The translations under genes were made by a program, and so were the position numbers. Shown here piece by piece: positions 29,694 through 31,570 of a stretch of 64,000 bases of DNA. Each line of letters opens with the position of its first letter. Positions within the stretch are counted from its first letter, which is position 1. Source of the DNA: Escherichia coli (GTDB lineage: Bacteria > Pseudomonadota > Gammaproteobacteria > Enterobacterales > Enterobacteriaceae); NCBI RefSeq assembly GCF_003334305.1, contig NZ_QOWS01000009.1; one strand, 5' to 3'. Below the pieces are notes generated by a model that was given only the letters and a program-made list of their open reading frames with translations, was not told the origin of the DNA and did no database searches.

Positions 29694-31523
29694 ATGTGTG
29701 GAATTGTTGGCGCGATCGCGCAACGTGATGTAGCAGAAATCCTTCTTGAAGGTTTACGTCGTCTGGAATACCGCGGATATGACTCTGCCGGTCTGGCCGT
29801 TGTTGATGCAGAAGGTCATATGACCCGCCTGCGTCGCCTCGGTAAAGTCCAGATGCTGGCTCAGGCAGCGGAAGAACATCCTCTGCATGGCGGTACGGGT
29901 ATTGCTCATACTCGCTGGGCGACACACGGTGAACCTTCAGAAGTGAATGCGCATCCGCATGTTTCTGAACACATTGTGGTGGTGCATAACGGCATCATCG
30001 AAAACCATGAACCGCTGCGCGAAGAGTTAAAAGCGCGTGGCTATACCTTCGTTTCTGAAACCGACACCGAAGTGATTGCACATCTGGTGAACTGGGAACT
30101 GAAACAGGGCGGCACTCTGCGTGAAGCTGTTCTGCGTGCTATTCCACAGCTGCGTGGCGCTTATGGCACGGTAATTATGGATACCCGTCACCCGGATACC
30201 CTGCTGGCAGCACGTTCTGGTAGCCCGCTGGTGATTGGCCTGGGTATGGGCGAAAACTTTATCGCTTCTGACCAGCTGGCGCTGCTGCCGGTGACCCGTC
30301 GCTTTATCTTCCTTGAAGAGGGCGACATTGCGGAAATTACTCGCCGTTCGGTAAACATCTTCGATAAAACTGGCGCGGAAGTAAAACGTCAGGATATTGA
30401 ATCCAATCTGCAATATGACGCGGGCGATAAAGGTATTTACCGTCACTACATGCAGAAAGAGATCTACGAACAGCCAAACGCGATCAAAAACACCCTTACC
30501 GGGCGCATCAGCCACGGTCAGGTTGATTTAAGCGAGCTGGGACCGAACGCCGACGAACTGCTGTCGAAGGTTGAGCATATTCAGATCCTCGCCTGTGGTA
30601 CTTCTTATAACTCCGGTATGGTTTCCCGCTACTGGTTTGAATCGCTGGCAGGTATTCCGTGCGACGTCGAAATCGCCTCTGAATTCCGCTATCGCAAATC
30701 TGCCGTGCGTCGTAACAGCCTGATGATCACCTTGTCACAGTCTGGCGAAACCGCGGATACCCTGGCGGGCCTGCGTCTGTCGAAAGAGCTGGGTTACCTT
30801 GGTTCGCTGGCAATCTGTAACGTTCCGGGTTCTTCTCTGGTGCGCGAATCCGATCTGGCGCTGATGACCAACGCCGGTACGGAAATTGGTGTGGCCTCCA
30901 CCAAAGCATTTACCACCCAGCTCACCGTGCTGCTAATGCTGGTGGCAAAACTGTCTCGACTGAAAGGTCTGGATGCCTCCATTGAGCATGACATTGTGCA
31001 TGGTCTGCAGGCGCTGCCGAGCCGTATTGAGCAGATGCTGTCTCAGGACAAACGCATTGAAGCTCTGGCAGAAGATTTCTCTGACAAACATCACGCGCTG
31101 TTCCTGGGCCGTGGCGATCAGTACCCAATCGCGCTGGAAGGCGCATTGAAGCTGAAAGAGATCTCTTACATTCACGCTGAAGCCTACGCTGCTGGCGAAC
31201 TGAAACACGGTCCGCTGGCGCTAATTGATGCCGATATGCCGGTTATTGTTGTTGCACCGAACAACGAATTGCTGGAAAAACTGAAATCCAACATTGAAGA
31301 AGTTCGCGCGCGTGGCGGTCAGTTGTATGTCTTCGCCGATCAGGATGCTGGTTTTGTGGGGAGCGATAACATGCACATCATCGAGATGCCGCATGTGGAA
31401 GAGGTGATTGCACCGATCTTCTACACCGTTCCGCTGCAGCTGCTGGCTTACCATGTCGCGCTGATCAAAGGCACCGACGTTGACCAGCCGCGTAACCTGG
31501 CAAAATCGGTTACGGTTGAGTAA
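29694..31523 (+). CDS. glmS: Glutamine--fructose-6-phosphate aminotransferase GlmS (609 aa)
   Basis: N-terminal MCGIVGA (Ntn Cys), two SIS domains, C-terminal ...KSVTVE. Confidence 0.96.
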
Positions 31524-31550
31524 TCACTATCATAGATAAAAAAGGGCTGC
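31466..31550. other. attTn7 target region (TnsD-binding 3' end of glmS plus insertion point about 23-25 bp past the stop); unoccupied
   Basis: Established Tn7 biology; the glmS 3' coding end is intact and is followed directly by its terminator, with no tns genes or Tn7 ends. Confidence 0.6.
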
Positions 31551-31570
31551 CGACCGGTGGCCCTTTTTTA
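31544..31570 (+). terminator. glmS Rho-independent terminator (GGGCTGCCGACCGGTGGCCC followed by TTTTTTAT)
   Basis: Hairpin plus T-tract directly after the glmS stop. Confidence 0.75.

Follow-up and report, generated by a model that had tools for sequence, protein, structure and literature searches.

The window, a stretch of 64,000 nucleotides from an Escherichia coli chromosome (contig NZ_QOWS01000009.1), contains in this order atp, glmU, glmS, lpfABCD-O113, pstSCAB and phoU, followed by bgl. In a megablast comparison with 5426 complete E. coli genomes, positions 31300-37100 gave a 100% match to strain A7, whose annotation concurs with the ORF list and with NCBIfam on the identities of the genes from glmS to pstS (Table 1). 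The glmS gene ends with a TAA codon at 31521-31523, and its product scores 896 bits against TIGR01135 (cut-off 418) over residues 2-609, that is, over its full length. Away from this region, the window starts with a complete 16S rRNA gene on the minus strand (15-1556; Rfam SSU_rRNA_bacteria, 1577 bits), and the atpC-glmU spacer holds a full-length match to the enterobacterial STnc410 sRNA family (27921-28078, minus strand, 188 bits), antisense to the flanking genes. Three DnaA-box matches (TTATCCACA, TTATACACA and TTATCCACA) cluster at 17375-17563, just upstream of mnmG, out of seven observed in the whole window against 2.3 expected; this cluster is probably the chromosomal origin oriC.

Table 1. 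Features between glmS and pstS, with positions as numbered in the window
Feature	Position	Strand	Basis
glmS CDS, intact, 609 aa	29694-31523	+	ORF list; NCBIfam TIGR01135; A7 RefSeq annotation
TnsD recognition part of attTn7 (last 36 nt of glmS including stop; +58 to +23)	31488-31523	+	identity to K-12-type L001
Haplotype-specific spacer of 20 nt, from stop codon to insertion point	31524-31543	+	unlike K-12-type and lpf2-type spacers
GGGCT, the 5 bases duplicated by Tn7 in the lpfO113 haplotype; single copy in the window	31544-31548	+	L004 junctions
glmS intrinsic terminator	31536-31571	+	RNA fold; inverted repeat I3
Terminator A-tract	31538-31543	+	
Terminator stem (G+C core), with loop GACC	31544-31551 / 31556-31563	+	
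Terminator T-tract	31564-31569	+	
Haplotype-specific segment	31525-36945	.	alignments and blastn against L001
AT-rich region upstream of lpfA (GC ca. 0.32)	31572-31824	+	composition profile
lpfA-O113, fimbrial major subunit	31825-32397	+	NF011817, 392.7 bits (cut-off 203); A7 RefSeq name
lpfB-O113, periplasmic chaperone	32445-33176	+	NF011818, 534 bits (cut-off 317); A7 RefSeq name
lpfC-O113, outer-membrane usher	33201-35723	+	usher families, E = 2e-229, below equivalog cut-offs; RefSeq name
lpfD-O113, minor subunit or putative adhesin	35734-36807	+	best NCBIfam StgD, 218 bits, below cut-off; RefSeq name
Conserved pstS promoter with Pho boxes, right edge of variable segment	36946-37054	+	98% identical to K-12-type spacer 204-313
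pstS	37055-38095	+	NF008171, 746 bits

The four genes between glmS and pstS follow the order major subunit, chaperone, usher and minor subunit, and lie at the location typical of LpfO113/Stg-type operons; lpfABCD-O113 is a chaperone-usher operon of the Stg/Lpf2 group, and is present in 1971 of the 5426 complete E. coli genomes. The AT-rich region preceding lpfA contains a 15-nt near-perfect palindrome (TTTACTGTTTAAATA / TATTTAAACAATAAA, 31653-31683), a possible binding site for a regulator, and small ORFs of 20-28 aa on its minus strand. In the bovine strain NS-NP030 (NZ_AP024126.1), the lpfO113 region is split by the IS66-family element ISEc8, leading to a two-piece match across 8.25 kb.

The terminator that follows glmS reads A6-GGGCTGCC-GACC-GGTGGCCC-T6 (31538-31569) and folds as RNA with -24.5 kcal/mol (z = -5.9), a value equalled by none of 200 shuffled sequences. 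A scan for consensus terminators made no call in 31300-32000; this was set aside given the strong folded hairpin, and we take it to be a limitation of a simple scan. All matches from a permissive Rfam search of 31400-31900 were far below gathering scores. A related terminator hairpin, GGGCTGCCttttGGCGGCCC, is found in the lpf2 haplotype of O157, and those loci from Citrobacter and Pseudocitrobacter that include the flanks each have a terminator of their own, ca. 16-21 nt past the glmS stop.

TnsD requires positions +23 to +58 of attTn7. Because the duplication observed in occupied genomes (see below) is centred 23 nt past the stop, this classical determinant corresponds exactly to the last 36 nt of glmS, CCGCGTAACCTGGCAAAATCGGTTACGGTTGAGTAA, which are 36/36 identical in the K-12-type sequence L001 and in the Tn7-occupied locus L004. 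The 3' end of glmS had been described in a first-pass annotation as intact and immediately followed by its terminator, and the full-length TIGR01135 match, this identity and the hairpin at 31536-31571 bear out both statements.

We then made use of genomes in which the site is occupied. In a K-12-type genome (strain GmF046, L002), Tn7R abuts glmS and the sequence GCAGG, nucleotides 21-25 past the stop, is duplicated. Applying this spacing to the window predicts insertion at GGGCT, on the 5' side of the terminator stem, and we accordingly assembled a 182-nt junction query from the window up to 31548 and the right end of Tn7. The predicted junction was found, with 100% identity over the 182 nt, in at least 17 complete E. 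coli genomes, in which Tn7 lies between glmS and lpfA-O113 and is flanked by GGGCT. The reciprocal junction with Tn7L (Tn7L and GGGCT, then what remains of the terminator and the sequence leading up to lpfA) occurred in all of those 17 genomes and in another 10 that have a variant spacer, making 27. In strain 1EC213 (L004) the two junctions, marked here by slashes, read ...AAAAAAGGGCT/TGTGGGCGGACAA...TTGTCCGCCCACA/GGGCTGCCGACC...: on the left side, glmS with its TAA, TCACTATCATAGATAAAAAA and GGGCT are joined to TGTGGGCGGACAA, with tnsABCDE and a class 2 integron beyond, and on the right side TTGTCCGCCCACA is joined to GGGCT, GCCGACCGGTGGCCCTTTTTT and lpfA-O113. The 20-nt spacer to the left of Tn7 in this strain is unchanged with respect to 31524-31543.

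An lpf2-type genome, strain 2013C-4465, carries Tn7 flanked by AAGGG, again nucleotides 21-25 past the stop, so that the duplication occupies this position in three of three spacer haplotypes (GCAGG in K-12-type, GGGCT in lpfO113-type and AAGGG in lpf2-type genomes). That three unrelated spacers are all cut at the same distance indicates that the spacing of Tn7 is independent of the sequence at the insertion point, in agreement with what is established for Tn7. The cassette arrays vary between Tn7 copies, with only dfrA1-sat2, lacking aadA1, in 1EC213 and dfrA1-sat2-aadA1 in GmF046; intI2 has its usual internal stop in these copies.

The locus combines a conserved TnsD sequence with insertion, in genomes of the same haplotype, at a fixed distance, in a single orientation and with a 5-bp duplication. 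Since Tn7 sits at the predicted base in these genomes, the window shows, in its unoccupied state, a site used by Tn7 and, as judged from sequence comparisons, is a working but empty attTn7. This comparison of the junction with Tn7-occupied genomes had been suggested in the first-pass annotation, which considered the site to be unoccupied; the 100% identity of the predicted junction in at least 17 genomes and the lack of Tn7 ends and tns genes in the window uphold that reading, and the interval given for the feature, 31466-31570, frames it correctly.

The window was also searched for traces of the transposon, using Tn7 proteins and ends from the occupied genome L002 for comparison. Tblastn with TnsA-E against the whole window produced a best E value of 0.19, and no tns gene is annotated in the identical A7 genome. 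Using 200 bp of each Tn7 end in blastn-short, only chance matches of 9-13 nt appeared in the window. A weight matrix built from seven TnsB sites, which scores true sites with 26-32 bits, peaked at 12.8 bits across the window (the mean of the best score per shuffle was 13.0) and 4.9 bits within glmS-pstS (31524-37054). We found no 5-mer in the arrangement TSD-TGT...ACA-TSD with its left copy 1-120 nt past the glmS stop, nor any repeat families at the borders of the lpf segment. The features that identify Tn7 and Tn7-like elements, which are tns genes, TGT...ACA ends with TnsB repeats of ca. 22 bp and a 5-bp duplication, were therefore all missing from the window. The absence of Tn7 ends and tns genes, originally noted by eye, is thus confirmed by the blank tblastn, blastn-short and TnsB matrix searches of the whole window; end repeats were missing both from 31524-37054, downstream of glmS, and from the window at large, and neither Tn7-like terminal repeats nor a 5-bp duplication flank the fimbrial island.

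Comparison with the K-12-type locus delimits what is particular to this haplotype. Homology to L001 stops after TAAT, one base past the stop, and resumes at position 204 of the K-12-type spacer, equivalent to ca. 36945 in the window; a segment of ca. 5.4 kb thus stands in place of a spacer of ca. 200 bp, the glmS terminator included. K-12-type homology resumes at the same point of the Pho box in O157, Pseudocitrobacter vendiensis and Citrobacter werkmanii. The GC content of the segment is 0.32-0.50, versus 0.51-0.55 in the flanks. Four fimbrial genes and the spacers around them make up the segment, in which neither the ORF list nor the A7 annotation shows an integrase or transposase; no tRNA is annotated there either, and none was reported by an Rfam scan of the window. 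The hairpin that remains whole, a variable segment that starts at the stop codon (position 31525) and the lack of ends, tns genes, duplication or any other trace of a transposon indicate, in line with the first-pass annotation, that the operon was not delivered by Tn7.

The border repeats D13 and D14 (18 nt, 78%) were weighed as candidates for att-like repeats; being short, imperfect and displaced from the junctions, they were rejected. The stretch following the terminator (31562-31579, CCTTTTTTATAACTGACA) resembles the Pho-box region of pstS (36970-36987, CCTTACATATAACTGTCA), with 78% identity over 18 nt, and the post-terminator stretch of C. werkmanii (L006, 495-540) shows CTGTCAT motifs and a weak similarity of 37 nt to the K-12-type spacer. 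The likeness between the post-terminator stretch and the Pho box may be a remnant of the ancestral spacer or may be due to chance.

Fimbrial operons at this chromosomal position are not restricted to the lpfO113 haplotype. The stg operon of Salmonella Typhi and the Stg operon of APEC occupy the same glmS-pstS intergenic region. An lpf operon lies between glmS and pstS in strains SE11, E24377A, SMS-3-5 and O157 (PMC2608844), a location also given in PMC6033998, where a four-gene operon is described at the position of O island 154 in ca. 50% of phylogroup B1 strains, with 99-100% identity. By scanning the usher protein against one genome per species, we found the order glmS-fimbrial operon-pstS also in C. 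werkmanii (usher 67%) and P. vendiensis (usher 91%), as well as the lpfC-lpfD part only in Escherichia whittamii, in a short locus that does not include the flanking genes. In P. vendiensis (L007, 4625-9600), identities with the E. coli proteins are 91% for the usher, 86% for LpfA, 95.6% for GlmS and 92.8% for PstS, and the closeness of the operons is compatible with common descent as well as with transfer from one genus to another. In the Citrobacter and Pseudocitrobacter relatives, the spacers on the two sides of the operon, towards glmS and towards pstS, showed no remnants of transposons.

The fimbrial occupants of the spacer, which are lpfO113, a variant at 89%, the lpf2 of O157 and the versions from Citrobacter and Pseudocitrobacter, are all homologous and share a common right junction at the pstS Pho box. 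Comparing the K-12-type spacer with the non-coding parts of the lpf haplotypes matched the pstS promoter; the other match was the weak 37-nt similarity to the left spacer of C. werkmanii (E = 0.006 in a tiny database), which we discarded as an ancestral insertion point because it is too weak to define one. The 200 bp of the K-12-type spacer have no clear counterpart in the lpf haplotypes, and therefore either arrangement could be ancestral. Homologous occupants with a common right junction point to one old event, after which the copies diverged, were lost and were probably exchanged via the conserved flanks, so that, from these alignments, the glmS-pstS fimbriae look like one old, diverged and variably present locus rather than the product of repeated insertions. 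The patchy distribution of the operon, together with the lack of mobility genes and repeats, suggests that its spread and loss across E. coli lineages most likely came about through homologous recombination within the conserved flanks on the glmS and pstS sides.

These observations bear on two further statements in the first-pass annotation. The intergenic region was there called a recombination hotspot, a designation that fares poorly given that its occupants are homologous and have the right junction in common; the one element seen to integrate repeatedly and independently at glmS-pstS is Tn7. Nor does the pattern agree well with an operon that was simply acquired, and fits instead an old diverged locus that is variably present.

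Other explanations for the locus were considered. Tn7-like elements build genomic islands at glmS, and the lpf operon could accordingly be the cargo of an ancient Tn7-like element inserted in attTn7, whose tns genes and ends eroded past recognition. Formation of such islands is discussed in PMC11014353, and the operon is situated on the side of glmS where such cargo would be expected, with a GC content below that of its flanks. However, the best Tns match has an E value of only 0.19, there is no similarity to Tn7 ends, the TnsB matrix does not exceed 4.9 bits in the segment, and no 5-bp repeat accompanied by TGT/ACA flanks it. Moreover, the terminator hairpin that Tn7 splits is still whole, divergence from the empty haplotype begins at the stop codon and not at nucleotides 21-25, and the spacers of the relatives in Citrobacter and Pseudocitrobacter are devoid of visible transposon remnants, all of which makes this origin very improbable. 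We grant an equally slim chance to a deeper version, in which a Tn7-like element would have first placed the Stg/Lpf2-family operon in the ancestor of Escherichia, Citrobacter and Salmonella, with its traces since lost, and to its milder variant, by which fast-evolving, haplotype-specific glmS terminators would be kept 16-21 nt past the stop to ensure that they are always split by Tn7, which would thereby gain read-through from glmS into tnsA.

Slightly less improbable, although still unlikely, is that the operon is a recent island placed by an integrase or a phage-like site-specific recombinase, with glmS-pstS acting as a general integration hotspot. Its presence/absence polymorphism within E. 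coli, its near identity (99-100%) in ca. 50% of phylogroup B1 strains (PMC6033998) and its lower GC content would agree with this, but the segment has no annotated integrase or transposase and no tRNA-shaped RNA was reported in it; border repeats are not significant, the only pairs spanning the borders being those of 18 nt and 78% that are misplaced with respect to the junctions; and homologous occupants with a common right junction, found in other genera too, argue for one old event. A different objection concerns the site itself: attTn7 might be unusable in the lpfO113 haplotype, since its downstream spacer and terminator are replaced and all the sequence from one base past the stop differs from K-12. 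This is refuted, and we give it practically no credit, because 27 complete genomes with the same or a closely related spacer carry Tn7 at nucleotides 21-25. Indeed, of ca. 102 Tn7-occupied genomes overall, 27 are among the 1971 of the lpfO113 type (ca. 1.4%), versus ca. 75 among the remaining 3455 (ca. 2%). We thus conclude that 31488-31571 is very probably an unoccupied attTn7 of the lpfO113 haplotype and that lpfABCD-O113 is a separate, older occupant of the region, not delivered by Tn7.

In Tn7 biology, TnsD bound at the end of glmS recruits TnsC and the TnsAB transposase, and the element inserts in a single orientation with Tn7R next to glmS. PMC3273789 describes how Tn7 enters the glmS terminator, with its right end adjoining the gene, and how recognition takes place within a conserved gene while the insertion itself falls outside of it. 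At the unoccupied site in the window, TnsD would bind 31488-31523 and would recruit TnsC and the TnsAB transposase; Tn7 would then be pasted in one orientation at a fixed distance downstream, with its right end adjoining glmS. After such an insertion, GGGCT (31544-31548) would be present on both sides of the element, and the hairpin of the glmS terminator would be split within its 5' arm.

The literature already covers attTn7 as well as the location of lpf between glmS and pstS, and their identification here is correct but ordinary annotation. The strain should offer a free, neutral landing site for Tn7, which is of little importance beyond annotation. For mini-Tn7 tagging, the insert would land between glmS and lpfA, where it would split the terminator of glmS, ahead of the promoter region of the fimbrial genes. 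The synteny of the fimbrial operon across genera also corrects the idea of a recent insertion tied to attTn7.

The locus can be placed next to three known systems. As in the genomic islands built by Tn7 at glmS in other bacteria, additional DNA lies downstream of the gene, but the segment in the window differs from them in having no tns genes, ends or target duplication. With respect to the lpfO113/Stg/lpf2 operons (O island 154), lpfABCD is 100% identical to lpfA-D-O113 of A7 and occupies the same chromosomal position, and there are no notable differences from lpfO113 operons; the lpf2 of O157 is a divergent allele, with ca. 43-68% protein identity, a split chaperone with a segment at 56% and an extra gene. 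As for the attTn7 of E. coli, the TnsD sequence is identical, the duplication occurs at nucleotides 21-25 past the stop, inside the glmS terminator, and natural insertions are oriented with Tn7R next to glmS. In contrast to the attTn7 of K-12, the spacer at the insertion point and the terminator belong to the lpfO113 haplotype, and the bases that are duplicated, GGGCT, are part of the 5' arm of the hairpin, whereas their counterparts in K-12, GCGGG or GCAGG, are part of the 3' arm.
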